Positions 35,064 to 64,000 of a stretch of DNA of 64,000 nt are shown here, one piece after another (the stretch's first letter is position 1; every line of letters begins with the position of its first letter). A program made the translations under genes and the position numbers. A model generated the notes under the pieces. It had not been told where the DNA came from. It did no database searches and saw only the letters and a program-made list of their open reading frames with translations. The DNA lies in contig OY762069.1 of assembly GCA_963665095.1 (NCBI GenBank), positions 4,480,001 through 4,544,000 on the forward strand. Reading direction: 5' to 3'. This stretch comes from an uncultured Desulfobacter sp. (GTDB lineage: Bacteria > Desulfobacterota > Desulfobacteria > Desulfobacterales > Desulfobacteraceae).

Positions 35064-35915
35064 TTAATAGCACTTCATGATGCCAAGCGCCCGCTCAAGC
35101 CTCTGACAAAAAAACCGGATACACTCCTTGCGAAATGCCAGGCCCTTGAAAAACTCCTGATCACCGGAGGAGATGGTGGGGCAGTCCACCGCCATTCCCA
35201 TCTCTTCAAATGCACATCGCCAGCTGTCTTGATTTCCCATGAGGTCGTCTTCCACATGAATACCGGCCAGAAACATCATGGGGATCAGACGGATGCGGGT
35301 AAAATTGTTTTGAGCATGATCTTTACGGATCTGACTGACAATACTGTTAAAATTGGGAATACCTTCCACCGTGGCGGCATACACATTGTCATACCAGCCG
35401 GATACAAGATGGTTGATGCCCATATAAACCATGTTTACCGGGTCTGAAGCCAGAGGCGTTCCGTGAAGGGCCAGAAGATTAATCTCCTTTTCCCCGGTCA
35501 GAAAATCTTTGGAAACCACCTCCAGCACCTCTTCAATGAAATCCCAGCGGTGGCACAGGGTCTCGCCCATCACCACCCGCAGTCCCGGAAAATACAGGGA
35601 AGACTCCTTTACCTGCTGATATTCTGTCCCCGGAAACACATGCAGCGGCTGGACAACCGCTTTCCGGTATCCGTCGGCCTCCACTTTCCCCAATGTTTCC
35701 AGAAGACTTGGCAGCCCTTTTTTCCTGCGGATGATCTCCGAGGTATAGGCCCAGTATATGTCATAATCGGCAAATTTTTCGGCAAGCCGGGCTTCAACCG
35801 CATCGATGGCCGCCTGGCCACGTGAAGAGGTGCCAAAGGTGGCAATGACAATGGCCGGCTGTTCCTTGAGTTTGGGCTGGCGCATTTTTCGACCGATATA
35901 TCCGTGCTGATGCAT
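35064..35915 (-). CDS. cbiK: Sirohydrochlorin cobaltochelatase (anaerobic, class II), no signal peptide
   Basis: TFGTS, WAYTSEIIR, VQPLHVFPGTEY, LHGT, ATVEG.P, PMMFLAGIHVEDDL, KGLA. Confidence 0.88.
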   Translation of the reverse strand: MHQHGYIGRKMRQPKLKEQPAIVIATFGTSSRGQAAIDAVEARLAEKFADYDIYWAYTSEIIRRKKGLPSLLETLGKVEADGYRKAVVQPLHVFPGTEYQQVKESSLYFPGLRVVMGETLCHRWDFIEEVLEVVSKDFLTGEKEINLLALHGTPLASDPVNMVYMGINHLVSGWYDNVYAATVEGIPNFNSIVSQIRKDHAQNNFTRIRLIPMMFLAGIHVEDDLMGNQDSWRCAFEEMGMAVDCPTISSGDQEFFKGLAFRKECIRFFCQRLERALGIMKCY

Positions 35916-35982
35916 AGTAATATCCTTCTATTAAGGTTAAATGTGTTTGTTATACTGTTGTGTTGACATGCCGGTCAAATCC

Positions 35983-36744
35983 TCAGTCACACAGAGTGGC
36001 GCCCAGGGCCACGGTGAACTGCGGGAACCGGGTCACTTCAATGTCGCATAATAAAGCATCTTCCAGGGCTTCCACAAGGCCCCGGTTGGATGCGGGTCCC
36101 CCGTCCGCGAACACCTTTTCCTCCAGGGGCGCACTGCCGGCAAGCTTGGCAATACGGGCGGCCACGGAATTATTGATCCCCTTAATTATGGCCCGTTTGT
36201 CCACGTCATCCGCCATGAGAGAGACGATCTCACTTTCGGCAAATACCGCACAGGTGGCATTGATGCTCATGACCTCCACCTCGTCACCCACAGCGAACTC
36301 GGACAGGGGGGTGTCCAGGATATTGGCCGCAATTTCAAAAAACCGCCCTGTGCCGGCGGCACATTTATCGTTCATACGGAAATCTAAAATCCGACCGTCA
36401 TCCCCCAGCCGGATCACTTTGACGTCCTGGCCCCCGATGTTGATCAGGGTGCGGGCTTCTCCGCCGGTAAGGGCATGGATGCCCGCGGCATTGGCGGAAA
36501 TTTCATCCACCACATGGGTGCCCGAAGGGATGAGGTGACGACCGTATCCGGTGACGCAGATTTTTTCAATATCCGACGATCCCGCGATCAGGGCGGAAAG
36601 CCCCTCTGCCAGAAGATCATCCACCAGGGCTTTCTGTCCCGGCCGTGTGGGCACCACCTTTTTCCACAGGATCTGTGTGTCATTCTCTGCAAACACAATT
36701 TTTATGCCGGTGCTGCCGACGTCAATGCCAACTTTCATTTTCAT
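35983..36744 (-). CDS. ASKHA-type ATP-dependent activase (HgdC/BadF/BadG family; DCCP-reductase-like)
   Basis: GIDVGSTGIK, TGYGR, IGGQDVK, MNDKCAAGTGRF, CAVFAESE. Confidence 0.9.
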   Translation of the reverse strand: MKMKVGIDVGSTGIKIVFAENDTQILWKKVVPTRPGQKALVDDLLAEGLSALIAGSSDIEKICVTGYGRHLIPSGTHVVDEISANAAGIHALTGGEARTLINIGGQDVKVIRLGDDGRILDFRMNDKCAAGTGRFFEIAANILDTPLSEFAVGDEVEVMSINATCAVFAESEIVSLMADDVDKRAIIKGINNSVAARIAKLAGSAPLEEKVFADGGPASNRGLVEALEDALLCDIEVTRFPQFTVALGATLCD

Positions 36745-36877
36745 GTCCTTTCTTGCACTTCTTTCACTGCTCTTTTTCTAATTTGAAAGACACAACACTT
36801 AATTACTTGCGAGCAGATAATTACGTGTCGTGTCCGCCAAATTATGTACGTTCCAAGTGATGGTCCCTGGCCGAACA

Positions 36878-38164
36878 TCACCCCAGGCTTCGCGAAAACG
36901 CTTCCAGGCGCGTGATGATATTCTGTTCATCCGACACCACATAATCAGTTTCAATCTTCAGCACTCTGATGCCCGCCTTTCCTAAGTGCTGCTCCACAAG
37001 ACCCGCCTCCATATCAAAAGGATGGCACCCCTTGAGTACATGAAAAATCACCCCGCGCATACCGCTGTTCCGGACGTCTGCCACCAGGCGGTCCAGCCGC
37101 CGCCGGTTATCTGCAAACGTGGGGCAGGCACATGCCTTGTGATGGCGGTCGGCCAGGGCATGCAGCAGGCTGTACTCGGACGGATCCCGAAAGGCCGCAG
37201 CCCCGGGAAAGCCCCGTTCAAGGGTACAGATGTCATCACCTGTAACTGCCATACCGGCATTTTCAATGAGCCGGATCATCTTGTCATTGGGAAAGGCCAC
37301 GGGGCTGCCGCTTAAAAAAATTGGAATTTTCAGCCCATTGCAGGGGAGGGCACTCTCAACATAGACTTTTACCCCTTGAACCCACGCCTCAAGATCCATC
37401 AGGGAGAAAGCATTCATGATCAAAAAAAAGTCAATGCCCGGCACAGCCTGAGCCCGACGCAGGGTACAAAGGGTGTCAAACAAGGTCGCTGCCCGGTTGA
37501 ATATTTTTACGGATGCCAGAAGGGCTTTTCTTGAAATGGCCTGCCCGGTGATCGCCTCCAGCCAGGTCTTAAGGGCCTTTATCTCCCCCAGCCACCGGTT
37601 GCAGGCCCCTTCACCCTCCCGCAGATGTGGCAGTTCCATAAAATGCAGATTCGCGGTCTGGTCCAGCCCGGAAAGGGCGGCAAACTTCACCACCCAGTCG
37701 CAGGTGGTGGGAACAACAAGATTTAAAGGACCGCTATCCCTGCCCAGGCCCAGAAGTCCGGTTAAAGATTTCACCATGGGGCAGGAGAGGGCAGGAAGAT
37801 GCCCGGGGGCTGCATCCTTTGCCGCAAAAGAGCCGCAAGCCAGACGTTTCAGGCTCAGCCCCGCAGCATGAAACAGCTCCCCCGGGACCTGGACGCACAG
37901 GGAGAAGACGGTTTTCTTAGGCGTTCCAGGCGAGTCGCCGCCGGACAGGACATCTTTGGGGAAGGCCTCCAGAACCGCCAGAAAAGGAGCCAACCGCTCC
38001 GTCTCTTCCGTGGTCAGCCGCTGCCTGATCTCACCGGCCTCCTGGCCCAACCGGGTCCGGGTTCTTTTAATCAGCCGCTCCTGGCGGGCGCTGAGCCTGC
38101 TCGCCCCTGCAGCCGCCGGGTTTTTCGCTGTTTCTTTGGCCAAATCACTGGTCTTTTCTTCCAT
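36878..38164 (-). CDS. 2-hydroxyacyl-CoA dehydratase (HgdB) family protein, probable double-cubane cluster protein
   Basis: Cys motifs LCVQVPGEL, LACGS, LSCPMVKS, TTCD, DDICT, CACPTF, GCHPF; C-terminal LKIETDY...TRLEAF. Confidence 0.85.
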   Translation of the reverse strand: MEEKTSDLAKETAKNPAAAGASRLSARQERLIKRTRTRLGQEAGEIRQRLTTEETERLAPFLAVLEAFPKDVLSGGDSPGTPKKTVFSLCVQVPGELFHAAGLSLKRLACGSFAAKDAAPGHLPALSCPMVKSLTGLLGLGRDSGPLNLVVPTTCDWVVKFAALSGLDQTANLHFMELPHLREGEGACNRWLGEIKALKTWLEAITGQAISRKALLASVKIFNRAATLFDTLCTLRRAQAVPGIDFFLIMNAFSLMDLEAWVQGVKVYVESALPCNGLKIPIFLSGSPVAFPNDKMIRLIENAGMAVTGDDICTLERGFPGAAAFRDPSEYSLLHALADRHHKACACPTFADNRRRLDRLVADVRNSGMRGVIFHVLKGCHPFDMEAGLVEQHLGKAGIRVLKIETDYVVSDEQNIITRLEAFSRSLG

Positions 38165-39100
38165 TTACTGCTTCTCCCATTTCCGGGTCTGATAACTGCG
38201 GGATGAGGTGAACAAGGGAAATCCCAACCATTTAAATGAGAGGGTGTCGTCCGAAGGGCAATTCTCCACACAGGCCATGCAGCCTGTGCAATCCTGGCTC
38301 ATCACGTTCTTTTGATCCTTTTCAAGATAGGTGTCGCTGATGGTCATGGGGCAGGTGCGCTCGCAGTTGCCGCACCCGGAACAGGTCTCCACCTTTTTTT
38401 CAAACCGCACCGGGCTTAATTTTGCAAACAGATGCATCAGACCCAGCATGGGACAGAACATGCAGAAAAACCGTTCTTTAAAAAAGATCCCCACCAGAAA
38501 CCCTGCGGTAAGCACCATGGAGACCAGGGTAAAGCCCATGGTCACGCCATTGGTGAAGTTGATATGCACATGGGAAAAATCCCCGGCAAACATGGGCAGG
38601 ATCACCCGGCCCGGGCAGATCTGGCAAAAAGGGACAATCCAGTCCGGATGCAGTCCGAAATTCGCGATGGACAGGGGCAGAATCACCATGAGCGCCAGAA
38701 AGATATATTTTATGGGTTTCAGGGCATTGCGCTGTTTCCGGGTCATGATCATGGGCCGGACGCCCAGTTTTTTGCGTATCCAGGTCACCCAGTCCTGGAA
38801 CAGACAGAAGGGGCAGATCCAGGCGCACCACATTTTGGACAGGGGCAGAAACCAGAGCAGGAACAGCCCGAAAGGGATCAGTATCCCCATCACGCCCGAT
38901 GAAAAAATGACAGCAAAAGGGGTCTGAAACCCGGCAAAGGGGCGCTGGAACGCCATGAGATAACAGTTGCCCGCGCACCCGCTGACAAAGGGGCAGGAAA
39001 AACAGGGCAGGGACATGCCAAGGTCAATTCCCCACCTGCCGCCGTACATGAGGATCACAAAAAAAATGTGCTGGGAAATCTGCCTTAACCGCGCCACCAT
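38165..39100 (-). CDS. Membrane-bound 4Fe-4S polyferredoxin (NapH/MauN-like)
   Basis: CFSCP, WCAWICP, FCQICP, FCMFCP, two CxxCxxCxxxCP motifs; several TM helices. Confidence 0.88.
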   Translation of the reverse strand: MVARLRQISQHIFFVILMYGGRWGIDLGMSLPCFSCPFVSGCAGNCYLMAFQRPFAGFQTPFAVIFSSGVMGILIPFGLFLLWFLPLSKMWCAWICPFCLFQDWVTWIRKKLGVRPMIMTRKQRNALKPIKYIFLALMVILPLSIANFGLHPDWIVPFCQICPGRVILPMFAGDFSHVHINFTNGVTMGFTLVSMVLTAGFLVGIFFKERFFCMFCPMLGLMHLFAKLSPVRFEKKVETCSGCGNCERTCPMTISDTYLEKDQKNVMSQDCTGCMACVENCPSDDTLSFKWLGFPLFTSSRSYQTRKWEKQ

Positions 39101-39981
39101 GGCTGCCTCCTTTTCATCACCACCCAGCCGGAAAAAAAGACCGTGGCCCCAGCCAGAATGGACCAGCCGTACACCGCACTGTTCTGGGCAAATCTGGATC
39201 TGTGGACCATGAAGGTGTATGCGGCACTGATGCAGGTTCCCATAGTTTCCGTATTCATGGGCGTATCTAAAAATACAATATCTTCCCGAAAGGCCACAGC
39301 ACCCGTTCGGTTGAGTTCCCGGTCATGGCCTGGAACATGGGTCCAGTTTGTCTCTGAATCCTTTGTGCCATGACCTTTTGTATATGGGCTTTGGGTCAGC
39401 GCCCGGATCAGTTCTCTTTCCTTAACCTTCAAAGGCGCTGTCCGGGCCGGGGGCACGGTATCATCCAAACCTTTGTAAACAAAAAAATCAAAGGATTCAC
39501 CTGTCTGGGGCCAGAACCGTGTATGGAACATCTTAACCCCCACAAAGGGCACCCCCTTGAGCATGGCAACCTCTTCCGGTGCTGCCGGTGTCCTTGGGAC
39601 CGGCTCCTTTGAATTGCCCCACAGGTAGAATGAGGTGGATGCCGTCATCAAACGGCCACTGACGTTGGCAACGGCAAAAATGTTAAAAAACGCCCTTTGC
39701 CCGGAAACCAGATCCACCCGGCCCTGGTCCGGAACGGCTTTAAAAACAGTATCCGTCCCCGAGTGGGTATAAAAAACTTTTGCTGATAAGACCGCCTGGG
39801 AAGGCCCTTCCAGGATCAGCGTCCGTATAAACCGGCCATCTTTCTGTTTGACCACGGGCTGACATTTAAAATAAAACAACGGCACGGCCGCTTCCGGCAA
39901 CGCCTGGGCCTGCAATGGAAACGACAGGACTGCCAGCAGGAAAAACAAGGCCGGCAAAAGAACAATACGGTTAGAGTTCAT
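39085..39981 (-). CDS. Hypothetical exported protein with C-terminal membrane anchor
   Basis: Signal peptide (MNSNRIVLLPALFFLLAVLSFPLQAQA); C-terminal TM plus KRR tail; overlaps both neighbours. Confidence 0.7.
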   Translation of the reverse strand: MNSNRIVLLPALFFLLAVLSFPLQAQALPEAAVPLFYFKCQPVVKQKDGRFIRTLILEGPSQAVLSAKVFYTHSGTDTVFKAVPDQGRVDLVSGQRAFFNIFAVANVSGRLMTASTSFYLWGNSKEPVPRTPAAPEEVAMLKGVPFVGVKMFHTRFWPQTGESFDFFVYKGLDDTVPPARTAPLKVKERELIRALTQSPYTKGHGTKDSETNWTHVPGHDRELNRTGAVAFREDIVFLDTPMNTETMGTCISAAYTFMVHRSRFAQNSAVYGWSILAGATVFFSGWVVMKRRQPWWRG

Positions 39982-42900
39982 GAAGCTTCTGCCTTTTGTA
40001 AAATCCCAAAGAGACCAGGGCCAGCACCGCAAGCACAGCCAAAAGCCCCATCCACTCCATGCCCGAGGTACTCATCTTGGTGGTTTTATCTTTCATCTTC
40101 TTTATCTCTTCCATCTTAAACCCTTCCACGGTCTCCTGTTCCCCGGCACCGGTGTCCCCGGGCTTTGACGGACGCCCCATGTCGGCCCGGGAGCCGGGTG
40201 CGGTCAAGCTTTCCAGCAGCTCCTGCCGGGCCTTGACCTGATCTGTAAGCGTCTTGCCCGCCATTTCTTCCACAGCCATCTTAAAGGCATCGGCAATTTC
40301 CGGGCTCAGCACGCCGGGAATGGAGACAATGGAGACCACCATCTGGTTGAGCATGGGATTGTTGCAGGTATGTTCGCAGCAGGCAATACCCTTGGCCACA
40401 ATGCTTTTAGCATAATCTGCCGCCAAAGTTTCAAGCTTTTTCTGATCTGCTTTCCAATACCCTTTGCGATGGGTCTCCAGCATTCTGGCCGTGATGGACT
40501 GGAAGGCCCAGGGAGAGGCCTTGGCGAAAAATTCATCCATTTCCAGGCCGTATTTATCCGCCACATAGACATCATAGGTTTCGTTCCATTTGGACTCATC
40601 CACCTTGTCAGGCGTGGTCAGGTTCCACCCCCACAGGTACTCCACAAAATCGGCCATGGCCCTGGCCCCGGCATAGCCTTCTGCCTTCATGCCCTTTATC
40701 CACTTGGGGTTGAGGTACCGGGCCCGCATCTCCATGCCGATGCTTTGGGCAAGGTCTTCCACGGCCACGGTGGTCCCTTTGGTCTGTTTGGTGACAAGAG
40801 TCTCAGGGGACTTACCCGCCTCCTTGCGTACGGCCATGGCAAGACCGCCTAAGTACTGGAACATATCGTCGTTATCCATGAGGCCATATACATTGGATGA
40901 TTTGGAGTGGGTCACGGCATCCACCTGGGCAAGCTGGGCCTTCAGGGCTTTTTGGGCCGGGATCCCCCAGCTTTTGCCGGTACCGGTCTTGCCGAAGGCG
41001 TATCCTGTCCGGTTTTCCCACACTTCAGCCACCCGGTCGGGATCATCCCACAGGCTTGAGCCGGACGCCATCTCGCTCACCCCGTTGCCATAGGCCCCGG
41101 GCGGCTCGCTGAACACCCGAAACCGGGACACCTCTTCGGCCTCGTCCGGGTCCATGCCCTCTTTTATCAGCCGGGTCTTGGTCTCCTGGTTGTGCCGGGC
41201 AATGAGATTTTCCACATCGGTCTGGCGGGCAGCCAGGCGAACGGCTTCGTCTAAAAAGAGCATTTTGTCCGGAAACAGATCCCGGTAAAGCCCGGATGCA
41301 TTGATCATCACATCAATTCTTGGCCGGTTCAGTTCCGCCTTTGTCATCAGCTCAAGTCCCAGAACCCGTCCGGCCTTGTTCCATTTCGGCTTCACCCCGA
41401 TGAGATATAAAATGGTACACTCGTTCATGCCCTCGTTGCGCAGGGACTCTGTGGCCCAGAGGACCACTGCCACTTTATGGGGATACCCGCCTTTGTTTTT
41501 AAGGTGGTTGGCAATAATCTGGTCGCCGGCTTTTACCCCCAAAGCCCAGGCAGCCGGGCTTGGCATCTTTCCGGGGTTAAACCCGTAGAAATTTTTCCCC
41601 GTGGGAATGGCGTCCGGATTCCTCACCGGGTCATTGCCCGGGCCAGGCGCCACATACCCGCCATTGAGCCCGTGGATCAGCGCGGCCATCTCCGAAGGGC
41701 CGCAAGCCTTAAGGGCGGATTCAAATCCGTTGGCGTTTTTATTCTGGCTCGCCTCAGGATCCCAAGTTTTGATGGCGGCTGTCATCTCCTTAGCCGCCTC
41801 TGGAACCGGCGACACCCCAAATGTATGCATGCCATAGGGAATCAAACTCTCTTTGACCGCTTCCAGGTAATGCCCCAGAACATGGATCTTTTCATCTTCA
41901 TTTTCAGGCAGATGGGGAAGGTCTTTAAAGATCCCTGTCTTTTCAGCCAAGGCAAACAGCTCCACCTTTTTCTCCTCTATGGCCTGGCTGCCAATGGTTT
42001 CACCCTGTTCAATTTCCCCTGCCAGGTCCGCCATCCGCGCATACTCTTCGTCAATATCCGCGGATTTCAGCACCGGGGTGAGATGGGAGATGATCACACC
42101 ACGGCCCCGCCGCTTGGCCTGGATGCCCTCGCCCACATCATCCACAATATAGGGGTAAAGGTTAGGGATGTTTGTGGTCAGCACCTCGGGGGAACAGGAG
42201 GGGGAGAGTCCTGCCTGTTTGCCGGGCGTCCACTCATAGGTGGCGTGCGTCCCCAGATGAATCACGGCATGGGCCTTGAAGTTTTTCTGGAGCCAGAGGT
42301 AGACCGCCAGGTACTGGTGGTGGGGGTAAAGCGTGGTGTCATGGTAGAGCTTCATGGGGTCATCCCCCCAGCCCCTGGAGGGTTCCGGCAGCAGAATCAG
42401 GTTTTCGGTCCGGGCGGCAGGGATAATAAAGGCGTTGTCCTGGATCATGATTTTGGAATCGTCCACAGTTCCCCACTGCCGGATCACATTTTCCCGGAAA
42501 TCTTTTGGCAGGGTGGCAAACCAGGATCGATACTCATCCAGGGGCACCCGCACCACTTCTCCTGAAGCTGTCAGTTTATCAAGCTCCCCCGGGGCCCAGG
42601 AACCGATATTCCTTGCCGATGTGAGTAAAAGCGCTTTGACCTCATCTTTGCTTAAGGATTTTCCTGCCTGGTAACCCTGCTTATCCAGAGCATTCTGGAT
42701 GGCGGCAATACTTTTAAACACATTGAGATAGGACGCCCCGATATTCTGCTTGCCCTGGTGGTGGTTGTAGAACATGATGGCCACTTTTTTGTCCGGGTTG
42801 GCCGCCTTTTGAAGCCGGTCCCAGCCCTTGATCCGGTCAATGAGGCGGTCCAGGTTGGCCGAAGCCAGACTGCCGATATAATAGGTCTTTCCCGTACCCT

Positions 42901-43945: not shown

Positions 43946-44037
43946 TTCAAGCTTTCAACTCTGATATAAAGTTAAAGCAACTTGCCAGTTAGCTTTTTAA
44001 ATTCACCCATCGGATATGCCAATTAATCCGTTATGGA

Positions 44038-44164
44038 CGTTTGGGGTAAGATTTATCCAGATGCAAGGCGCAAGAAAAGTTAAAACCGGAGCAACCTGAA
44101 GGTTGTGAGGATTTTAACTTTTTGCACCAACGCCGCAGGTGGATGAATTTTAGCCCAAACGCTA
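44038..44164. repeat. ERIC-like hairpin repeat, copy 3
   Basis: CGTTTGGG...CAGATGCAAGGCGCAAG...GAGCAACC/GGTTGTGAG...CAACGCCGCAGGTGG...CCCAAACGCTA; its terminal TAG is the DUF2149 stop codon. Confidence 0.8.
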
Positions 44165-44497
44165 GTCGGGAATATATATCATGGAGCCATCTTCGAGTTT
44201 GTAAGCAGTACCCAGACGCTCGCCTTTACCCTTGGCCTTAGCCTCAGTCACCTTCATGGCGGTAATCTTCTTGCCCTTTTTCTCAATGATCTCCACCTGG
44301 CCGTTGTCCGATTTTTTCATCAGGGTGATGTTACTCTCCTGGGAGAGCAGATCCTCCAGGTGAAAGGCCCCGAAAATAGCAATGAGCAGCCCCACGATAA
44401 AGACAAGCCCTAGGTCAAAAAGGTTGGCCACCCCGGACATGGGGTCGTTGTCGGAAAAGCCCGTACCCCGGTTCTGACTGACTTTAAGATACCGCAT
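44162..44497 (-). CDS. DUF2149 family protein (ExbD-like single TM)
   Basis: DPMSGVANLFDLGLVF...GERLGTAYKLEDGSMIYIP. Confidence 0.88.
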   Translation of the reverse strand: MRYLKVSQNRGTGFSDNDPMSGVANLFDLGLVFIVGLLIAIFGAFHLEDLLSQESNITLMKKSDNGQVEIIEKKGKKITAMKVTEAKAKGKGERLGTAYKLEDGSMIYIPD

Positions 44498-45095: not shown

Positions 45096-45097
45096 AA

Positions 45098-45898: not shown

Positions 45899-45900
45899 GA

Positions 45901-55077: not shown

Positions 55078-56984
55078 TTGCTTGTCTCCTTGGAGGATTC
55101 GATGCCGGCGATGAGCGCCCCAAGCCCTTTGGCAACGGCCGGAGGAATTTCATCACAGGTACAGGGTGCCGGCGCAAGTTCCCTGCCGCAGATGGCAGCG
55201 GTAACTTTTCGGCAGGTTTGATCCCAGAACGGGCTGTCCGTGATCAGATCCTTTTCACGGGCATCGGCCACAGCCAGGGCAGATTCTAAAAACGAGGCAT
55301 ACCAGGGGTCGTCCATGAGCTGTTCAAGGCGTGCCACAAGGGGCCTAAATGCCATGGTGGTCTGAAATTTTCTGACCAGGGCTTCCAGGCTTAGGCCCCG
55401 CTCATCAAGCCGCTGAAAAACCGTTCTGCCGGGCAGGATACCATTCTGGCCGGCAATGGCCCGGGTGACGCCTTCATGAACCGCTTTTGCCATAAGCTCG
55501 GCAATCTTGCTGTGCCCGCCGGCATAGGCCACGTCCAGGCCGTCTCCCTGGATGATCAGCATATTGTCCGTGCCGGTTCCTGTGGCAGGATTGCGCCACC
55601 CGGTATAGGTGCTGCGGATATCCAAGTCTTCAAGCGCTGCGGTTTTACCCTCGGTGGCGGAGATAATGGCCCTGGACATGGCGGCAACGGAAAGTTTTCT
55701 GTTGACTGCCAGGATAATGTTAATGGTGCCGTGGGAGAAATAGTACCCCTGGTCCTTGGAAAACCGCATGGCATTGCCCCGGACCCCGGCTGTTACAAAG
55801 GCTGTCACCGAAAGGTCTTTAAACCGTTTCGTTGCCACGGCCAGATTATCCATATCAGCCCCTGTCATAAGTCCGGTAAATTTGCCTTTGCCAAAGCCTA
55901 AGTTTTTTTCGCACGTCTCCTGGACTCTTTTTACCCCGGTGCGCATATGCCCGAGACTTGCAGCCATGGGAATATAGGTGTTGCCGCACCCGTCCAAATC
56001 GGTTTGAAGACCGTTCAGGGTGGAAAGAACCGTCTGAGGCGTCTTAAAGCGGAGGACGAGACTCTTATATGGGGTGTCTGCCACCCGGTGGCCGACCACT
56101 TCAGCATCGGAAAGATAAGGCAGGCTGTCCGGTTCAATTGACACCGTACGATGCCACAATTTTTTATCCTGGGTCACAGCCCGGTCAGGATCGGCAAACA
56201 CCTCGGGATAGAGCATGGCAGAAAGCCACTGAACAAAATCCCCGGTGGCAGTTGAGACCCGGCAGGTCAGCTCGCAGGGAAACATGTAGATCCGGCCGTT
56301 TTTTACGGCATCCACAGTTTTAAAGTCATCCGTGGCCAGCAGTTCCCGAACCGCATCCGCATTGGCATTGCAGCCGTACACCACCTGAGGGTTAAACTTT
56401 TTCCAGGCCTTTGCATCCATCTGAACCCAGGAGCCGCTTTGCCCCCACTGGGGAGCAATGCCGCCGGCCGACCGGATCATTTCATTCTGAAAAGAATCAT
56501 CCCCGGGGCAGCTCAGAGACGTCCCACTGCCGATCACCCGGGCCACCCGAACCTTATGCAGATCCTTTTCCCGGGCCTGGTCAAAGGAATTCGTGGTAAT
56601 GGGCAGCACCTTAACGCCTTCGCCTACCGCTTTTTTGATCTGTTCGACTTTTTTCAAAGGACAGATCACCAGATCGGGTGCGAATGTTACGATTGCCGGG
56701 AGATCAAGGTTAAAATAACCACCAAGACTTTCGGCCTTAAGTGCGGCATGGTACATTAGATCCTGCCGGGTTACCGCCACGATTCTGTCTTCTCGGCCCA
56801 TGGCAGCAAGCATCTGAGTCACCCCGGGCGCAAGGCAGACGATGCGTTCCGGGGGACTGGAAAAGCTTATTTCCCGGCCGTCAGCTCCTTGAATCAAGGT
56901 TGAAGCGTTCCCTGCAAAACAGACCTGGCCTGCGCAAAGGAAGAAAGCAACACTAAAAACAATCAAAAAAATTCTGGTTTTCAT
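55074..56984 (-). CDS. cbiZ: BtuF-like periplasmic binding domain fused to adenosylcobinamide amidohydrolase CbiZ
   Basis: Signal peptide; PERIVCLAP, PDLVI, DAVKNGRIY (class III SBP); GLMTGADMDN, VTAGV.GNA, GTINIIL, TEGKTAAL, ATGTGTD, GGHSK (CbiZ). Confidence 0.85.
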   Translation of the reverse strand: MKTRIFLIVFSVAFFLCAGQVCFAGNASTLIQGADGREISFSSPPERIVCLAPGVTQMLAAMGREDRIVAVTRQDLMYHAALKAESLGGYFNLDLPAIVTFAPDLVICPLKKVEQIKKAVGEGVKVLPITTNSFDQAREKDLHKVRVARVIGSGTSLSCPGDDSFQNEMIRSAGGIAPQWGQSGSWVQMDAKAWKKFNPQVVYGCNANADAVRELLATDDFKTVDAVKNGRIYMFPCELTCRVSTATGDFVQWLSAMLYPEVFADPDRAVTQDKKLWHRTVSIEPDSLPYLSDAEVVGHRVADTPYKSLVLRFKTPQTVLSTLNGLQTDLDGCGNTYIPMAASLGHMRTGVKRVQETCEKNLGFGKGKFTGLMTGADMDNLAVATKRFKDLSVTAFVTAGVRGNAMRFSKDQGYYFSHGTINIILAVNRKLSVAAMSRAIISATEGKTAALEDLDIRSTYTGWRNPATGTGTDNMLIIQGDGLDVAYAGGHSKIAELMAKAVHEGVTRAIAGQNGILPGRTVFQRLDERGLSLEALVRKFQTTMAFRPLVARLEQLMDDPWYASFLESALAVADAREKDLITDSPFWDQTCRKVTAAICGRELAPAPCTCDEIPPAVAKGLGALIAGIESSKETSK

Positions 56985-57106
56985 TCACTGCCTGTTCATC
57001 AAAAAGGTGGGGGCGGCGTCAACGCCGGGTGGCATTGACGCCTTTCTAAAGCGGTGTGAGTGAACTTTTTCACCCACACCTTTGTACTAATTTCAAGCTG
57101 TTTCGA

Positions 57107-59083
57107 TTAAAAAGAGTAGTTCAGGCCCATGTACATGGTTCTGCCGGGGGCCGTATATCCCTGGACCATGGCGTAATCCCTGTTAAACAGGTTTGTAATT
57201 TCACCTTTAAGCGACATCTTTCCAGATTTTTCAAAGGCACACAGAACCTTGGAGAAGGAGATATCGACAATGGTATCGCCGCCAAGCCGGGTTTCGCCTG
57301 TTCCCTCGTAGTCTGTAATATCATGTTTGCCATAGTAGGTAAAAGTCAGGCAGGAGGTAAACTCCAAGGCCTCATTATTCAGCTTGAGTCCCCAGGAAGC
57401 ATTCCAGTGCTGGACATAGGAAAGGTCTTCGCCAGTAGCGTCATCTTCATACTTGGTCATATAGGTAATAGATCCGTAAGGAATCAGTTCCGTATTCCAG
57501 CCAAGCATAGCCCCCATGTCAAACTGCATGTTACCTTCAAAGCCTTCAAAGGTAGCACCTTCTACATTTTCGTACTGGGTTACGCCCAGATCGGAATTAT
57601 ATGAATAACTGATCTTGTTTTTATATTTGGTGTGAAAACCGGTCAGGCCGACAGTGACGCTATTTTTGATATAGTCAATTCCCATTTCATAGGTCTTGCT
57701 GCTTTCAGGGTCCAGATCCTCGTTCCCGGACCAGATGCCGAAGCCCCAGGCACTGTAATCAGTGTACATGTAAAGCTGTTCAGCTGTGGGCATTTTAAAG
57801 GCTTCAGCATAATTGGCGCGCACTGAAAAACCGGCCGGCAGCTTGTATACAGCACCTACACTCTTAGACCAGTTGTCGTTTTCCTTGCTTCTGCCGTCGT
57901 CACCTTCCACTTCGTACTCATCATAGCGGCCGCCCAGGGAGAGGATCAGTTTGTCATCCAGCAGAAAGGTTTTGGCCAGCAAAAAGAATGCGGGGTTGTC
58001 ATAGGTGTTGTCTTTACCCTCATCCGTATTTGTGTTGACAATGGAATAACTGGTCCAGTCAAAACCGCCGGTAAGATTCAGGAAGTCCCACTTGGCGGTA
58101 ACCTGTGCCTGGGCGCCCTTATGCTCTGTATTTCTGAAATAGGAAGCTTCTTCGCCGGGAGCGTCATAGGTTTCGTATTCATCTTTTCCCTGGAAGTAGC
58201 GCAAAGACCACAACAGAAATCCATCCATGGCCTGGCCGTCATAGAACATATCGGCAGACCGCAGGGCATGCTCAATACAACCTTCCAGATCATTATCGCT
58301 TAAATAATCAGGGGCCCCGATCTGGTTGCCTTCGTAATCGGAAAAAGAGAAACCGATCCGGTTCTTGGGCATGAAGGTATACCCCGCTGTGATATCGAAC
58401 TTATCCTTGGAGTCGTATCCGGTGTTGTAATAGTGGAGCCCGTCACCGGTATCATAATCACCCTGGGATGCTTTGGATGCACTTACGCTGAAATCAAAAT
58501 TGGCAACATCGCCGGAAAGATCCACCTGGCCTTTTTTGTAATCCCAGCTGCCAAGGGTGCCTTCAACAGATCCGTGAACTCCGTTGGAACCGCGCTTGGT
58601 GATGACGTTAATGACCGCGCCCATGGCGGACGCCCCATACTGGACAGATCCGGGACCCCGGATAATCTCCACCCGCTCCACATTGTCCATGGAAATTTTG
58701 GCCAGGTTGCCTGTGCCGGATCTGCGCCCGTCAATAAGGATCAGCACAGAGCTTGACAGGTCATTACCGTGGGTTTCGGTGTTAAACCCCCGGGCATACA
58801 CTGAAATAGTGGAATTCGGATATTCCCGAATCAGCAGCCCTTCTTTGGCAAGAACGTCGCTTAAGTCATCCGCAGAGAGCACTTCAAGCTCTTCGGGTCC
58901 ATACACCGTTACATTGGTGCTGACATTTTGTTTTTTTTCAAGAATTCTACTTGAAGTGACCACCATGGTCTCCTGGACCACAGTTTCGGTTTCGTCATTT
59001 GTCTGGTTTTCTGAGGCTGCCGCAGATTGAACAAAGGCCAGCAGAACAAAAGATACAGCAAGGAAAATCAGCTGCTTTTTCAT
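57107..59083 (-). CDS. TonB-dependent receptor, BtuB-like (first gene after the cobalamin riboswitch)
   Basis: TonB box ETMVVTS, LILIDGR, VERVEIIRGPGSVQYG, GNEDLDPE, NLFNRDY, PGRT, C-terminal Phe; AGGAG RBS. Confidence 0.93.
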   Translation of the reverse strand: MKKQLIFLAVSFVLLAFVQSAAASENQTNDETETVVQETMVVTSSRILEKKQNVSTNVTVYGPEELEVLSADDLSDVLAKEGLLIREYPNSTISVYARGFNTETHGNDLSSSVLILIDGRRSGTGNLAKISMDNVERVEIIRGPGSVQYGASAMGAVINVITKRGSNGVHGSVEGTLGSWDYKKGQVDLSGDVANFDFSVSASKASQGDYDTGDGLHYYNTGYDSKDKFDITAGYTFMPKNRIGFSFSDYEGNQIGAPDYLSDNDLEGCIEHALRSADMFYDGQAMDGFLLWSLRYFQGKDEYETYDAPGEEASYFRNTEHKGAQAQVTAKWDFLNLTGGFDWTSYSIVNTNTDEGKDNTYDNPAFFLLAKTFLLDDKLILSLGGRYDEYEVEGDDGRSKENDNWSKSVGAVYKLPAGFSVRANYAEAFKMPTAEQLYMYTDYSAWGFGIWSGNEDLDPESSKTYEMGIDYIKNSVTVGLTGFHTKYKNKISYSYNSDLGVTQYENVEGATFEGFEGNMQFDMGAMLGWNTELIPYGSITYMTKYEDDATGEDLSYVQHWNASWGLKLNNEALEFTSCLTFTYYGKHDITDYEGTGETRLGGDTIVDISFSKVLCAFEKSGKMSLKGEITNLFNRDYAMVQGYTAPGRTMYMGLNYSF

Positions 59084-59114
59084 CTTACACATCTCCTAAA
59101 TAGAGCCCGGGCAT

Positions 59115-59150
59115 AAAAAAACCCGGACTTTAAAAATAATTAAATCCGGG
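59115..59150 (-). terminator. Intrinsic terminator in the riboswitch expression platform
   Basis: CCCGGATTT...AAAGTCCGGG followed by T7 on minus strand, between the aptamer and the receptor RBS. Confidence 0.75.
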
Positions 59151-59217
59151 GATTTCCCAAACTATCCTTTAGGATCTGTTGCGCACGCGCCCCCAGTCCA
59201 CGAGGGTGCCGGCTTTA

Positions 59218-59400
59218 TGCTCAGACAGGTCTTCTGACTCCCGAGTCATCCTTGCCCTGCCCCTTCCCGGCAGTGACTGCCAGTGGTTTTTGCAGAGAAA
59301 GTCTTCGGTTACAGCGGCGGGCCCGTTCCTGACTTTAACAGGATTCCCTTGGACCGTCCATCCCCATGGAACGATCAAGCGGTTTTCACGCACCTGAGCA
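59218..59400 (-). ncRNA. Cobalamin riboswitch
   Basis: P1 TGCTCAGG / TCTGAGCA; AGGTGC, AAGGGAA, GCCCGCCGCTGTAA, CCACTG...GGGAAGG, B12 box AGTCAGAAGACCTGTC. Confidence 0.93.
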
Positions 59401-59527
59401 AATAATTTTGTAGGTTATTATTCCCTTTTGTCTGTATTGTCAATGGCGGAACAAAAACAGACCCGGTTAATTATTTGGGGGTCACCCTCCCTTTTACCAG
59501 CCGGTTAAATCTATTCCATATAAAAAA

Positions 59528-62500
59528 TTATACATCGGTTAATTTATATCCTGCAAACAGGAGCAGCAGGATGCCGGCGGCAATGACCATGACCTGCCAG
59601 GCAGAGCCCGAGGAGGTCACGGATGTCTCTTTTGCCTTTTCCTCCACCATTTCAAAGCCTTCGATATTTTTTTCTTTGGTTTGGGCCTGGGAATTTTCCG
59701 GCTGCTCAATCTCCTTGATCACCTTTTCAAGGCCCTGGCGGGCCTGTTTGTGCGAAGCGATTCTCTCTTCCAGGGGTTTGCCAGCTGCCTTGGCCAGTGC
59801 TATTTTAAATGCGTCCATCTGTTTGGGGGTTAAAAGGCCTGCCAGGGAAAGATAATTGGTGACATACTGCTGGAACATGGGGTTGTTGCAGGTGTGCTCG
59901 CAGCAGGCCACCCCTTTTTCAATCACGTTCATGGCAAAGGTTCTGGCAATATTTTTCTTCATCTCCTCCGGGGCTTTCCAGTAATCTTTCCTGTCCGCTT
60001 CAAGCATACGGGCCGTGATGGACTGAAGTGCCCATGGGTTATTTTTGTTAAAAAAATCGTTGAGGTCCTCTCCGTATTTATCCTGGACATAGACATCGTG
60101 AATCTCTTCCCAGTATTTACCGTCCACGGCCCAGGGGGAGGTAACCTGGAATCCCCACAGGTTTTCCACAAATTCGTCCATGGCTTTGGCACCGGAATAG
60201 CCTTCCTGTTTCATGCCTTCAATCCATTTGGGGTTGAAGTACCGGGTCCGCAAGGCCTTGCCAATGGCCTTGGGAAGATCGTCTATGTCCACATTTTTTC
60301 CGTCCTGCATCTGTGCCACAACTGTTTCCGGAAAAGCACCGGTCTGCTGCTTGACCGCCAGAGAGAGTCCGCCCAAAAATGCAAACATATCGTCATTGTC
60401 CAGCAAGTTATATACATTGGATGACCTTGTGTGCATGGTCATTTTGACATCTTTGAGGTTGGACAGGTAGCCGCTTTTTAAAGATTTCCCCCAGATCCGG
60501 CTGCCATAGGCATAGGAGTAATGATGGATAAACACATCTGCGATCTCCTTTTCATTCTCCCAGACCCCGCTATTGGGGATCAGCTCCTGCATTGCATGGG
60601 AATAGGCCCCGGGCATGGGGGCAAACACCCTGGCCCGGCTCAGGTCCCTGGCCTCTTCCGGGGCGTAGCCATTCTCAAGCAGGGCCGCCTCAATGGTCTG
60701 ATTGTGAATTGCCACAAAATTTTCCACATCCTTCAGGTCCGATGCCATGCGGACGGCCCGGTCCATGAGCTTGATCAATTTTGCATAGCTGTCCCTGAAA
60801 AGACCGGATGACTGGACAAGTACGTCAATTCTGGGCCGGTTAAGCACCTGGCCAGGGATGGGCACGATGTCCACCACCTGATCTTTTTTATCCCATACAG
60901 GCGTTATGCCTAACAGGTGAAACACGGCAGCCACACTGGCCCCTTCATTTCTCTGGAGCTCCGTACTCCAGAGAATCAGCCCCATTTTTTCCGGATAAAC
61001 CCCATGCTTTTCCCGGTAGGTGGCGATCATCTCATCTGCCAGCTGTTTGCCCATGGACCAGGCTTCCTTTGACGGCACCTTGTCAATATTGAAGCCGTAA
61101 AAATTTTTCCCGGTGGGCACGGCATCGGGATTTCTGACAGGGTCATTGCCTTCAGCCGCTGCTATGAAGCCGCCGTTCAGGGCCTTGACAAGGGAAGCCA
61201 GCTCATTTCCCCCGCAGGCAGTGAGCCGGACTTTCATGTTTTCCAGTTTTATTTCAGGGCTGGCATCACAGATGGCATGGGCCAGGTCATCCAGGGCATC
61301 TCCGTCCGGGGAGACTCCGAAGGTGTGGAGACCGTAAGGAATCATGGTTTCCTGAAGCTCAAGTATATAGTGTTCCACCTCTTCAATGGTGTCATGGTCA
61401 AAGGTGTTAATGCCAAGATCATTATGAATGCCCAGCTTTTTTATCAGGGCTTCAACGCTGGAAAGTTTTTCTGCAGCAAGGGCGGAATCGGTCTTAAGGG
61501 CGCCATGGTAAGCATCAATCAGTGCGGTCAGTTTTCTGTATTCCATGTATTTCCCGCCTTTTTTCAGGGGGGGAATTAAATGGTCAATAATGACACCTCT
61601 GCCCCGTCTTTTGGCCTGGATGCCTTCACCCACATTGTCCACTATATAAGGATAGATATTGGGGATGTCCTGGAGCAGTATGTCGGGCGGGTCCGTGATG
61701 GACAGGCCGATCTGTTTTCCGGGCAGCCATTCATGGGTACCGTGCTTGCCCAGGCTGATGACGGCATCTGCCCGGAACTCTTTTTTCAGCCACAGGTAAA
61801 AGGCAATGTATTGATGGTGGGGGAAAAGTTTGGGGTCATGGTATAATTTTTCCGGGTCTTCCCCAAATCCCCTGGTCGGCTGGGGCATGAGTAAAAGATG
61901 TCCCATTCGGATGCAGGGAATGATGAAATTCTTATCCTTCATCATGATATCGGTGGATTCCGGTGTGCCCCACTGCTCAACCACATGGCGTTGAAAATCA
62001 GGCGGCAGCTCTTCAAACCACGCCTTATACCGGGGCAAAGAAATTTTTACAACGCTGTTATTGGCAATCAGCCTGTCCAGTTCGCCCGGTGCCCAGGAGC
62101 CCACGTTCCGGGCACCGGAAAGAATCCTTTTCTTGACCATCTCTTCGGTGAGTTTTTTGTTTTCAATGGTGTACCCCTCTTCTTTGAGCCGGGAGATGAT
62201 CGTGGCAATGGATCTGAAGCAGTTCATATAACTGCCCCCGATATTCTGCTTACCGGGTGGATGGTTCCAGTAAAGCATGGCAATCTTTTTGTCACAGTTG
62301 GATTTTATTTTCAGGTTTTGCCAGGCCTGAATCCGTTTGACCAGATAATCAATCTGGTCCGGTAAAGGCACCCTGTCGTACAGGACATCGGTCATGCCTT
62401 TAAGGCGCACCGATGTTTTGCCGCCCACCACCATGGGCTCGATGCCGCCGTTTTCCTCAGGAATGCAGACCTGCCAGGCTGTCCGAAGGGTGGAAATTCC

Positions 62501-63430
62501 CTGATCTGATTTTTTCCACTGGTCTATGGTGACCCCGTGGGCCTCCAAGGGAATGAACACCGGTGCATTGATCCGGGATAAGGTCTGTATGGTTTCCTCG
62601 GGATATCCTCTTAAAAAACGAAAGGAGAATCCGATCAGGGCATCCACCCGGGAGTTCCCCTTCTGATCCAGGAAACAGGACTCAAGGGATTTATGATAGG
62701 GTGGTTTCCCAAATGCCGGAAGGACATTGATGCCGTTTTTTTCAAGGGCTGCAATGATGCCGGCTTCCAGTTTGCCGTTTTCTTTCACGGCAGAGGACCT
62801 GAATGTGTGAATCCCCACCCAGAACCCCTTGTCCGTATAGTGGTTGGTATTTTTGTACCATTTCAGAAAGGTGTCATAATCTGTGAACAGATGGTCTGCA
62901 TCGGGATGGAAAATGCCCTTGTCCGGCAGGACAAAGGGTTTTGCATAGGGCATGCTGATCCCCTTGAACGACAACACCATGAAAATCAGATTTTTTAAAT
63001 TCGCCACTGTGGGCGGCTGGTAATAGACTTCCGTGCGTAAATCCGGAATAAATCCAATTTTTTTTAATTTATCTGCCAGGTAGCCGCAGCGCAGACTGTA
63101 GATCTGTGTATTTTTATTCTTAAGGACTGAAGAGAGAAAATCATCAGATTCCCGTTTCATGAAATCCGCCAGAATGATATCCGCGGTATTTACATCCTCC
63201 GTCCCCACCCGCTTATTCCGGATTTCCCGGTCCGTAAAAAACCTTAAACGGCACAGGCCTGCAACTTCAGGCATGGCTGACAGCTCCCTGATGGCCCTGG
63301 CCGTAACAATACTGTCCCGGGCACTGACGGTAAAAACAATGTCCAGTCTGTCCGGAGCACTGTGGACAAAGGATGGTAATAAAAGGCCTGAGACCAGCAG
63401 GCACAGCCCCAGAAGCCTAATCAATTTCAT
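59528..63430 (-). CDS. CobN/BchH-like chelatase subunit, paralogue 3 (exported, C-terminally anchored)
   Basis: SLGKHGTHEWLPGKQ, GEGIQAKRRG, RPRIDV, SGLFRD, FNPKWIEGM, CCEHTC; signal peptide MKLIRLLGLCLLVSG; GGAGG RBS. Confidence 0.92.
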   Translation of the reverse strand: MKLIRLLGLCLLVSGLLLPSFVHSAPDRLDIVFTVSARDSIVTARAIRELSAMPEVAGLCRLRFFTDREIRNKRVGTEDVNTADIILADFMKRESDDFLSSVLKNKNTQIYSLRCGYLADKLKKIGFIPDLRTEVYYQPPTVANLKNLIFMVLSFKGISMPYAKPFVLPDKGIFHPDADHLFTDYDTFLKWYKNTNHYTDKGFWVGIHTFRSSAVKENGKLEAGIIAALEKNGINVLPAFGKPPYHKSLESCFLDQKGNSRVDALIGFSFRFLRGYPEETIQTLSRINAPVFIPLEAHGVTIDQWKKSDQGISTLRTAWQVCIPEENGGIEPMVVGGKTSVRLKGMTDVLYDRVPLPDQIDYLVKRIQAWQNLKIKSNCDKKIAMLYWNHPPGKQNIGGSYMNCFRSIATIISRLKEEGYTIENKKLTEEMVKKRILSGARNVGSWAPGELDRLIANNSVVKISLPRYKAWFEELPPDFQRHVVEQWGTPESTDIMMKDKNFIIPCIRMGHLLLMPQPTRGFGEDPEKLYHDPKLFPHHQYIAFYLWLKKEFRADAVISLGKHGTHEWLPGKQIGLSITDPPDILLQDIPNIYPYIVDNVGEGIQAKRRGRGVIIDHLIPPLKKGGKYMEYRKLTALIDAYHGALKTDSALAAEKLSSVEALIKKLGIHNDLGINTFDHDTIEEVEHYILELQETMIPYGLHTFGVSPDGDALDDLAHAICDASPEIKLENMKVRLTACGGNELASLVKALNGGFIAAAEGNDPVRNPDAVPTGKNFYGFNIDKVPSKEAWSMGKQLADEMIATYREKHGVYPEKMGLILWSTELQRNEGASVAAVFHLLGITPVWDKKDQVVDIVPIPGQVLNRPRIDVLVQSSGLFRDSYAKLIKLMDRAVRMASDLKDVENFVAIHNQTIEAALLENGYAPEEARDLSRARVFAPMPGAYSHAMQELIPNSGVWENEKEIADVFIHHYSYAYGSRIWGKSLKSGYLSNLKDVKMTMHTRSSNVYNLLDNDDMFAFLGGLSLAVKQQTGAFPETVVAQMQDGKNVDIDDLPKAIGKALRTRYFNPKWIEGMKQEGYSGAKAMDEFVENLWGFQVTSPWAVDGKYWEEIHDVYVQDKYGEDLNDFFNKNNPWALQSITARMLEADRKDYWKAPEEMKKNIARTFAMNVIEKGVACCEHTCNNPMFQQYVTNYLSLAGLLTPKQMDAFKIALAKAAGKPLEERIASHKQARQGLEKVIKEIEQPENSQAQTKEKNIEGFEMVEEKAKETSVTSSGSAWQVMVIAAGILLLLFAGYKLTDV

Positions 63431-63776
63431 CGATCTTTTCCTCCGGTATATAGACAATCCTGCCGTTTTTCAGCTGGTAGGCCGTGCCCAGCCTGAAGCC
63501 TTCATCCCCGCCGATCTTATGATTTGTCACCTTCTTGACCTTGATCTCTTCTCCTTTTTTGGTGATGATCTGCCACTGCTCCTTCACCTTTTTCATGACA
63601 GTAATTTCACTGTCCGGATTGAAAAAATCCAGCACCTGGAAAGTGGACATCAGGGTGAGCAGCAATGCCACAATAAAGACAAGGGCCACATCAAAAAGAT
63701 TGGCAACACCGTTGAGCGGTTCTTCATGCCGGGACTTCAGCAGATGGTCGGACCGGCTGTTTTTTAAATAATTCAT
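63417..63776 (-). CDS. DUF2149 family protein, copy 3
   Basis: EPLNGVANLFDVALVF...GFRLGTAYQLKNGRIVYIP. Confidence 0.88.
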   Translation of the reverse strand: MNYLKNSRSDHLLKSRHEEPLNGVANLFDVALVFIVALLLTLMSTFQVLDFFNPDSEITVMKKVKEQWQIITKKGEEIKVKKVTNHKIGGDEGFRLGTAYQLKNGRIVYIPEEKIDEID

Positions 63777-64000
63777 GGCGCATCCGCAGGGTGTGGGCCT
63801 TTGGAAAGGCCGTTTGCCATGGCTTCGGTGATCAGGTTGATCCGGCGCATGTCTTCAAGCAACCACTGCTCTTTGACCACGGTAAAAAAATAGGCACTGA
63901 TGCCTAATGCTATGCCCACCACCGTGGTGGTAAAGGCCAGGATCAGGCTGGAGGATAACTGTGCCATGTTGCCCTGGGTCAGCCCGGCCAGGCCTGTGCC
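63773..64000 (-). CDS. MotA/TolQ/ExbB family protein, copy 3 (C-terminal part; 5-prime end outside the window)
   Basis: GTGLAGLTQGNMAQLSSSLILAFTTTVVG, identical to copy 2. Confidence 0.85.
   Translation of the reverse strand, partial: GTGLAGLTQGNMAQLSSSLILAFTTTVVGIALGISAYFFTVVKEQWLLEDMRRINLITEAMANGLSKGPHPADAP

Follow-up and report, generated by a model that had tools for sequence, protein, structure and literature searches.

Gene layout of the locus

The 64,000-nt stretch analysed here (the window) belongs to an uncultured Desulfobacter sp. (GenBank assembly GCA_963665095.1, contig OY762069.1, positions 4,480,001 to 4,544,000), and between positions 35,064 and 64,000 it carries three gene modules, each centred on a predicted exported CobN-like protein, that might belong to a B12-repressed system for scavenging cobalt from corrinoids. 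A first-pass annotation of this DNA had described the genes as co-oriented and mostly touching. Open reading frame (ORF) calling and Pfam searches bear this out: the described gene order is present in full, all on the minus strand, with intergenic gaps of −16 to +7 nt throughout, except for five of 67–216 nt.

Module 3, at the upper end of the window, comprises CobN-like protein 3 (59528..63430; PF02514, with His572, DNDD and CCEHTC, from motif analysis and alignment to HmuS, CobN and ChlH), predicted to be exported and C-terminally anchored, a DUF2149 (HmuV-like) protein (63417..63776) and the 3' part of an ExbB-like gene (63773..64000). The 5' part of that gene, a DUF2162 gene, a TonB-dependent receptor (TBDR) gene and a second cobalamin riboswitch for this module (~3.6 kb past the window end) reach ~3.8 kb past the window end; the suspected third module upstream is thus real and has a riboswitch of its own. 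Modules 2 and 1 are headed by a cobalamin riboswitch (59207..59412; Rfam RF00174, 104.3 bits) with a perfect TTGACA immediately upstream. Next come, assigned by Pfam, TBDR 2 (57107..59092), a BtuF-like binding domain (PF01497) fused to a CbiZ amidohydrolase (55074..56984; PF01955, 164 bits against a gathering score of 27) and predicted to be exported, the likewise exported and anchored CobN-like protein 2 (51109..55077; His576; DTDG clade), a DUF2162 (HmuT-like) protein of ~7 membrane helices with conserved His84 and PCPVC (50360..51109), a MotA/ExbB-like (HmuU-like) protein (49746..50363), a DUF2149 (HmuV-like) protein with one helix and a conserved Asp (49384..49749), and a putatively exported carbon-nitrogen (C-N) hydrolase of ~525 aa (47810..49387; PF00795), whose N-terminal nitrilase superfamily domain retains the Cys nucleophile motif. 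Module 1 consists of TBDR 1 (45901..47799), DUF2162 (45098..45898), ExbB-like (44484..45095) and DUF2149 (44162..44497) proteins and CobN-like protein 1 (39971..43945; His567; DNDD), which has the same leader and anchor and belongs to a clade often paired with BtuF-CbiZ.

Downstream of module 1 lie a reductase cassette and cbiK. The cassette encodes a putatively periplasmic, C-terminally anchored protein of unassigned family (39085..39981), a NapH/MauN-like membrane polyferredoxin (38165..39100; Pfam and NCBIfam), an HgdB/double-cubane-like cytoplasmic Fe-S protein (36878..38164; PF06050; NF040772 186 bits, cut-off 350) and an ATP-dependent activase of the BcrAD/BadFG family (35983..36744; TIGR00241 above cut-off). 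The CbiK-type cobaltochelatase (35064..35915) is leaderless and would be cytoplasmic; it scores 130 bits with PF06180 (cut-off 26) and 90 bits with the equivalog NF047852 (cut-off 400).

The window had been said to contain no btuCD, cobST/chlID or tonB. Searches by tblastn with same-genome homologues found no match in the window to btuC, btuD, chlD, chlI, tonB or exbD, cobS and cobT not being among the queries, and these absences hold for the window only: tonB, btuFCD and chlD/chlI all occur outside it. Elsewhere the genome encodes btuF-cbiZ-btuFCD, chlD/chlI, and a periplasmic cbiK with cbiA/C/D/ET/F/G/H/L/P; judged by its genes, the host has a full anaerobic B12 pathway outside the window.

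CobN-like chelatases, their modules and their partners

The closest named relatives of the three CobN-like proteins (chelatases 1–3) are in Desulfobacteraceae and other Desulfobacterota. In line with the resemblance to hmuSTUV noted at first pass, their best PDB match is the heme de-chelatase HmuS (9d26, 507 bits), which shares the architecture, and a predicted model of the chelatase C-terminal half also matches HmuS best (TM 0.78). TIGR02257 (CobN) scores 624–668 bits, under its cut-off of 822. Hydropathy profiles of all three show an N-terminal hydrophobic leader and a C-terminal anchor, neither of which is present in the other three CobN proteins of the genome, and point to a periplasmic rather than cytoplasmic location, as had been proposed.

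The equivalent of the HmuS catalytic His538 is kept in 96 of 96 surveyed chelatases (H567, H576 and H572 in the window). The position of HmuS His1209, by contrast, is never His: it is Asp in 82, Gly in 12 and a gap in the remaining 2; the HmuS motif LSLDHxxEFMGG (His1209, Glu1212) does not occur, and direct alignment to 9d26 gives Asp. Pairwise alignment at this site reads SLDH in HmuS, DSDD in CobN, DVSH in ChlH and DNDD in chelatase 3, suggesting, across three characterised families, that porphyrin-handling members carry His and the corrin-handling CobN carries Asp. Because the His1209 site is missing, heme, one of the substrates considered at first pass, is an unlikely one. Among the 150 best representatives at 50% identity, the site is Asp in 101 and His in 35. 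A CCxHxC tail is found in 89 of 96 chelatases, of which HmuS has a two-Cys version. The methionine-rich insertion of HmuS (780–898) was not seen in alignment A1, and the distance from His538 to residue 907 in HmuS is 369 aa, as against 154 aa in chelatase 3 (572 to 726). The alignment of chelatase 2 to 9d26 begins at HmuS residue 263; the preceding segment contains no His, and the Met79/His254 site is not directly aligned. One congener (L020:14274-15473, G022) has chelatase 3 cut to its C-terminal 399 residues and has lost DUF2149, retaining the riboswitch, TBDR and cbiK.

In DUF2162, PCP is invariant and His84 and Cys122 are near-invariant. Its predicted structure has a pLDDT of 89.6; Foldseek searches with this model gave no match at E ≤ 0.001, only generic helical ones (best Z 8.9), and profile searches gave no clear match to another family. 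A complex prediction for the C-terminal 251 residues of chelatase 3 with DUF2162 scored 0.00, which says nothing either way.

To place the modules in context, 123 loci were annotated by BLAST against the proteins of this genome and merged to 102 units, of which 27 were left out as truncated upstream. An nhmmer profile made from 12 Rfam hits served to call riboswitches, a few of the training loci being among the scored units, and a unit was admitted on a riboswitch hit or 600 nt of upstream room, a slight bias toward hits. A B12 riboswitch lies upstream on the same strand in 66 of the 75 evaluable units; on this sequence survey, B12-riboswitch control is the rule for the chelatase/DUF2162/ExbB-like/DUF2149 module, upholding the control assigned at first pass. 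Among the 65 units that span 14 kb or more, ExbB-like (63), DUF2162 (59), DUF2149 (59) and TBDR (58) genes are nearly constant companions, followed by CbiK (25, leaderless and exported types pooled), BtuF-CbiZ (22), cbiA/C/D (12), tonB (9), btuC (7), the C-N hydrolase (7) and HgdB-like genes (2). Apparent T-U, U-V and V-FZ fusions in relatives are explained by wrong-frame upstream starts or an N gap, and one apparent chelatase-TBDR read-through was seen (L153). Two congeners (L022:8698-12810, L023:7824-11954) carry a divergent exported CobN-like protein with ExbB-like, DUF2149 and TBDR genes and no DUF2162; it lacks the DxDD and CCxHxC motifs, and a B12 riboswitch was not found there.

DUF2162 scores above cut-off in 37 of 401 genomes of the phylum, our own included, and was matched in two methanogen control genomes, in one of them above cut-off. 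The methanogens have no outer membrane, and the module therefore need not serve outer-membrane import. CbiD is above cut-off in 32 of 36 module-bearing genomes, compared with 157 of 364 others, and is present in 21 of 23 families; it is missing from four carriers, one of them 93% complete and the other three from a single family. Module-bearing genomes thus appear to be mostly de novo B12 producers, and the proposed link to CbiK and de novo synthesis gains support from CbiK and anaerobic cbi genes as frequent neighbours.

The accessory enzymes point to the substrate. Of 401 genomes, 20 encode full-length relatives of the C-N hydrolase. At the 20 hydrolase loci of other genomes, 14 have a cytoplasmic CobN, five have none of CobN, cbiZ, chlI, cbiK or a riboswitch, and one has cbiZ, chlI and cbiK with a riboswitch. 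A leader was found in 0 of the 19 hydrolases scored there, as opposed to all five full-length ones beside an exported chelatase. CbiZ behaves similarly: in 33 of the 36 rows beside exported chelatases it is a leader-bearing BtuF fusion (three are cut by contig ends and two pairs are duplicates), whereas none of the seven stand-alone CbiZ proteins in cytoplasmic clusters has a leader. Judged by leaders, then, CbiZ and the C-N hydrolase track the compartment of the chelatase, and this matching is what most strongly favours a corrin substrate, though it leaves the direction of the reaction unfixed. The product of CbiZ is cobyric acid. The ligand of CobN itself is described as the a,c-diamide (10.64898/2026.10.09.757910), and an amidase would bridge the two. 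A metagenome scan with the C-N hydrolase confirmed nothing.

The genome of the window holds a cytoplasmic twin of the window gene set together with a nitrogenase-like reductase, in two convergent B12-riboswitch operons (G000:C1:226,000-268,500; L001-L003). One encodes ccsA/resB-like proteins, an ABC importer, a radical SAM protein, three cytoplasmic CobN proteins, ChlD/ChlI, a leaderless C-N hydrolase, CbiZ and a TBDR; the facing operon runs TBDR-anchored protein-polyferredoxin-HgdB-like-activase-ABC-NifH/NifD/NifK-like (CfbC/DPOR-like). Similar clusters recur across the phylum.

Proposed function and its alternatives

The first-pass annotation had called the locus a candidate new system, a description that finds no support: the architecture is that of HmuS/BtuS, versions with B12 riboswitches were remarked upon in 2023, and a 2003 proposal of metalloporphyrin salvage is cited in PMC6460266. 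In Nath 2025 (PMC12583661), HmuS is defined and most of the remaining clusters are said to be impossible to annotate; Mesle 2023 (PMC10100974) describes cobalamin-riboswitch hmu-like operons as 'perhaps involved in the metabolism of cobalamin'; Rocha 2019 (PMC6460266), which puts cbiK in the operon of btuS1, refers to Rodionov 2003 both for BtuS and for salvage from metalloporphyrins; HmuT/U/V are left uncharacterised in PMC13227078; and BtuS is reported in Methanosarcina (PMC10846266). The accessible portions of PMC10418091, PMC8620254 and PMC545781 contain nothing on the module, and the last of these, Rodionov 2004 on delta-proteobacteria, does not mention btuS, cobN or cbiZ. We found no published account of the form seen in Desulfobacterota, of the exported BtuF-CbiZ or of the link to the hydrolase in a search thin on subscription papers and extending to main texts rather than supplements. 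What appears new here is the absence of His1209 from all 96 chelatases (Asp in 82), the extent of riboswitch control, the CbiD association and the compartment matching of CbiZ and the hydrolase.

With hmuYRSTUV of Bacteroidota (HmuS PDB 9D26; PMC12583661, PMC13227078), the modules share a TBDR, a doubly anchored periplasmic class I chelatase, DUF2162, ExbB-like and DUF2149 proteins, the catalytic His538, a Cys-containing C-terminal extension and the lack of an AAA+ partner in the locus. However, no HmuY is found among the Pfam hits of the region, the Met-rich insertion is absent, Asp or Gly replaces His1209, a B12 riboswitch stands where hmu is iron-induced, and CbiZ, the C-N hydrolase and CbiK are added. 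The BtuS family and cobalamin-riboswitch hmu-like operons (PMC6460266, PMC10100974; for example B. fragilis btuS1 with cbiK) are alike in their exported CobN-like protein, proposed metalloporphyrin or cobalamin salvage, nearby cbiK and B12 riboswitch; the window differs in its three paralogous modules in Desulfobacterota and its exported BtuF-CbiZ and C-N hydrolase, a comparison made on gene content. CobNST and CobN-ChlID have the fold and the DxDD of the domain-V loop in common with the window chelatases, yet the latter are predicted to be exported and anchored with no ATP motor in the locus, in a host that uses the early-insertion (CbiK) pathway. Cobinamide remodelling by CbiZ with BtuBFCD likewise involves CbiZ and BtuF-like domains and a riboswitch, whereas CbiZ here is exported and BtuF-fused and btuCD is usually missing from the locus. 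The locus is HmuS-like in architecture yet lies outside HmuS proper. It fits best among systems of the BtuS kind, as a B12-regulated, Asp-type variant whose accessory enzymes would narrow the substrate to a trimmed corrinoid.

From gene content, topology signals, motifs, the regulatory motif and co-occurrence, we propose, at a probability of about 40%, a B12-repressed cobalt-scavenging system of anaerobic B12 producers that trims corrinoids in the periplasm, strips their cobalt and feeds CbiK. Corrinoids or related cobalt tetrapyrroles would enter the periplasm through TonB receptors, and there the exported BtuF-CbiZ, a known chemistry at a location suggested by its leader, would take off the nucleotide loop to give cobyric acid. 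The exported C-N hydrolase of the chelatase-2 clade may then remove side-chain amides, toward the a,c-diamide-like form that CobN binds, and the membrane-tethered CobN-like protein, working in the HmuS direction with a CobN-type corrin pocket, would free Co(II), the ExbB-like/DUF2149 pair possibly supplying proton-motive work in place of the ATP motor. Cobalt could pass through the CCxHxC tail and DUF2162 (His and CxxC) to cytoplasmic CbiK and de novo synthesis. The three modules probably differ in substrate preference, and the receptor-linked reductase cassette would be independent. Three points favour stripping of cobalt: metal removal is what the sole characterised protein of this architecture does, most hosts are de novo producers, and the minimal operon of congeners described below has cbiK as its last gene. 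A more specific form of the proposal is a proton-motive-force-driven periplasmic reversal of late corrin biosynthesis, in which CbiZ and the amidase undress the cobamide to the a,c-diamide, an ExbBD-like-powered CobN-type enzyme pulls cobalt from the intact corrin, and the ion, shielded from sulfide, travels through Cys/His sites to CbiK; this we consider speculative and on the doubtful side. To our knowledge, chemists have not achieved removal of cobalt from an intact corrin without destroying the ring.

Several observations weigh against cobalt stripping. Cobalt corrins are described as resisting cobalt removal unless the ring is destroyed (PMC6771967), and porphyrin release persists in btuS1 btuS2 mutants of B. 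fragilis (PMC6460266). CbiK is missing from 40 of 65 units and the C-N hydrolase from 58; three of the 36 module-bearing genomes, of one family and 99–100% complete, lack CbiD; and the CbiD enrichment is overstated, its p-value being given no weight, because related genomes are not independent. The hydrolases beside exported chelatases all fall in the DTDG clade, so their link is a single event. One exported BtuF-CbiZ stands beside a cytoplasmic CobN (L183), and the second BtuF-CbiZ of this genome sits with btuFCD and no chelatase. The ChlD/ChlI of the cytoplasmic twin clusters form an ATP motor of the kind known from metal insertion. In the congener G011, module 1 lies behind, and co-oriented with, btuFCD, which fits ring import. 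In addition, by its sequence the BtuF domain is damaged in this strain: a 108-nt in-frame deletion (36 residues) in the BtuF half of BtuF-CbiZ lies between short GGCC repeats, and a close relative retains the 108 nt. An assembly slip is unlikely, given that contigs of two sequencing runs, possibly the window's own source, span the deletion without differences.

If the metal stays in the ring, trimmed corrinoids held by the CobN-like protein would cross the inner membrane with cobalt inside, through DUF2162 and the ExbB-like pair or through BtuCD. Such ring-preserving salvage, which we regard as somewhat unlikely, draws on the known role of CbiZ in ring-preserving remodelling, on the chemical difficulty of demetallating corrins and on the persistence of the module in the three CbiD-less genomes; the scarcity of btuC (7 of 65 loci) may call for a different importer, and HmuT has been suggested as an intact-heme importer (PMC10100974). 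However, the module is enriched in de novo producers rather than non-producers, cbiK closes the minimal operon, the catalytic His is invariant and the genome has a separate btuFCD. The CbiD-less family (f51) is a natural test case for ring-preserving use: its small genomes (L085, L087, L091) keep the module with stand-alone BtuF-like genes, in L087 together with an ABC importer. The opposite direction, periplasmic insertion of cobalt into scavenged metal-free or wrong-metal corrins with proton-motive force replacing CobST/ChlID, is less probable still. The CobN-type DxDD pocket would suit it, the ChlID-bearing twin clusters have the same CbiZ and C-N hydrolase partners, and purple sulfur bacteria are reported to release cobalt-free corrinoids under cobalt shortage (PMC6771967), yet the only characterised protein of this architecture removes metal (PMC12583661), most loci have no importer for the product and free Co(II) would, by our reasoning, be scarce in a sulfidic periplasm.

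Two further readings seem improbable. In one, the proteins remove Fe or Ni from heme, siroheme or F430 as HmuS does, and B12 control is incidental; although HmuS is the best structural match and BtuS1 of B. fragilis, in a predicted operon with cbiK, contributes to the use of heme iron in the double mutant (PMC6460266), His1209 is absent from all 96 chelatases, there is no room for the Met-rich insertion, HmuY is absent and the B12 riboswitch recurs in 66 of 75 loci. In the other, the CobN-like protein relays cobalt captured from non-tetrapyrrole chelates to DUF2162, with CbiZ and the hydrolase as co-regulated passengers. The core does occur without CbiZ in 43 of 65 loci and without the hydrolase in 58, and the conserved CCxHxC (89/96) and His/CxxC motifs suit ion hand-over; the conserved 1300-residue tetrapyrrole cavity and the switching of the partners' compartment along with the chelatase argue otherwise.

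Most exported CobN-like families among the best representatives (101/150) carry Asp where the one characterised member has His, and for these Asp-type families the locus names candidate substrates (cobyric acid, a,c-diamide) and partners (CbiZ, a new amidase, CbiK). It also offers three paralogues within one genome, and the role of HmuT/U/V becomes directly testable. Should cobalt indeed be removed, sulfate reducers would be destroying the B12 of other microbes to rebuild their own, which bears on cobalt and vitamin cycling in sulfidic sediments, and an enzymatic route to metal-free corrins would exist.

Mosaic origin, reductase cassette and surroundings

The first-pass annotation had taken the 24 kb as a single machine, but comparison with relatives indicates that the locus is a mosaic rather than one conserved unit, made of three receptor-chelatase-DUF2162-ExbB-like-DUF2149 modules from three old clades and a separate reductase cassette. 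The three window chelatases are mutually 39–48% identical and fall in three separate, well-supported clades of a tree of 96 rows (quick method, midpoint root, short or N-containing rows left out), which rules out a recent tandem triplication. In four congeners (G003, G020, G021 and G022, the last with its chelatase truncated) the operon runs riboswitch-TBDR3-DUF2162-ExbB-like-DUF2149-chelatase 3-cbiK, with cbiK 85–86% identical to that of the window and ~25 nt from the chelatase stop. Since cbiK directly follows chelatase 3 there, the simplest reading is that ~23.5 kb probably entered between the two genes; loss in the congeners is a possible alternative. In G011 the corresponding block runs riboswitch-TBDR2-BtuF/CbiZ-chelatase 2-T-U-V-hydrolase-TBDR1-anchored protein-polyferredoxin-HgdB-like-activase, TBDR 1 heading the reductase cassette.

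Close relatives of the polyferredoxin occur in 10 of 401 genomes. At the ten loci fetched, the HgdB-like gene is next in all ten, the activase is present in eight and a TBDR is nearby in nine, a riboswitch is found in three and a chelatase module in none; an eleventh locus (L077) has both. Cassette and chelatase occur together in only 2 of 65 chelatase loci and, in other genomes, at 1 of 11 cassette loci, and the cassette as an integral part of the module is therefore rejected as a rule. The enzymes of the cassette have no leaders and would face the cytoplasm, which, with the usual absence of a chelatase, speaks against the reductive help in the periplasm assumed at first pass. The cassette resembles a stand-alone unit that would release metal reductively from chelates brought in via TonB. 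Six or more Cys of its HgdB-like protein have counterparts, in matching context, in the second copy that the genome encodes; the anchored protein has no Pfam hit, an Atlas score of 0.86 to a DUF4198 cluster, and positional equivalents that match DUF4198 below cut-off in three loci. A double-cubane cluster protein with an ATP-dependent reductase was reportedly described by Jeoung and Dobbek in 2018. That system shares the HgdB-fold protein and the activase, whereas the window protein falls below the NCBIfam cut-off and is associated with a TBDR, a membrane polyferredoxin and an anchored periplasmic protein; among the 20 best of 1,263 literature matches on double-cubane proteins with TonB or cobalamin, none describes the cassette. 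The cassette is conserved (L160-L169, L077) and sometimes includes a DsbD_2 membrane protein (L166, L168) or exbBD/tonB.

Between DUF2149 and chelatase 1 lies a palindromic genomic repeat of ~110–125 bp (44039..44164, no strand assigned) with 69 blastn matches in the genome, itself included, and loose contig ends at this spot; it is probably a REP- or MITE-like element. In the window, promoter-like sites occur at chance level, and a terminator scan, itself uninformative, found none convincing between genes. An operon that we take, from BLAST, to be DUF3450-exbB-exbB-exbD-tonB-TPR-like is divergent from module 3 and starts ~4 kb past the window end, its tonB lying ~7.7 kb past that end. The genome has 14 riboswitch-like hits, and a further B12 riboswitch stands ahead of a TBDR, binding-protein/ABC-like genes and a NifH-like gene (G000:C1:206,000-212,100). 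On the other side, a complete rRNA operon (16S-23S-5S, minus strand) occupies 29363-34571, ~490 nt downstream of cbiK.

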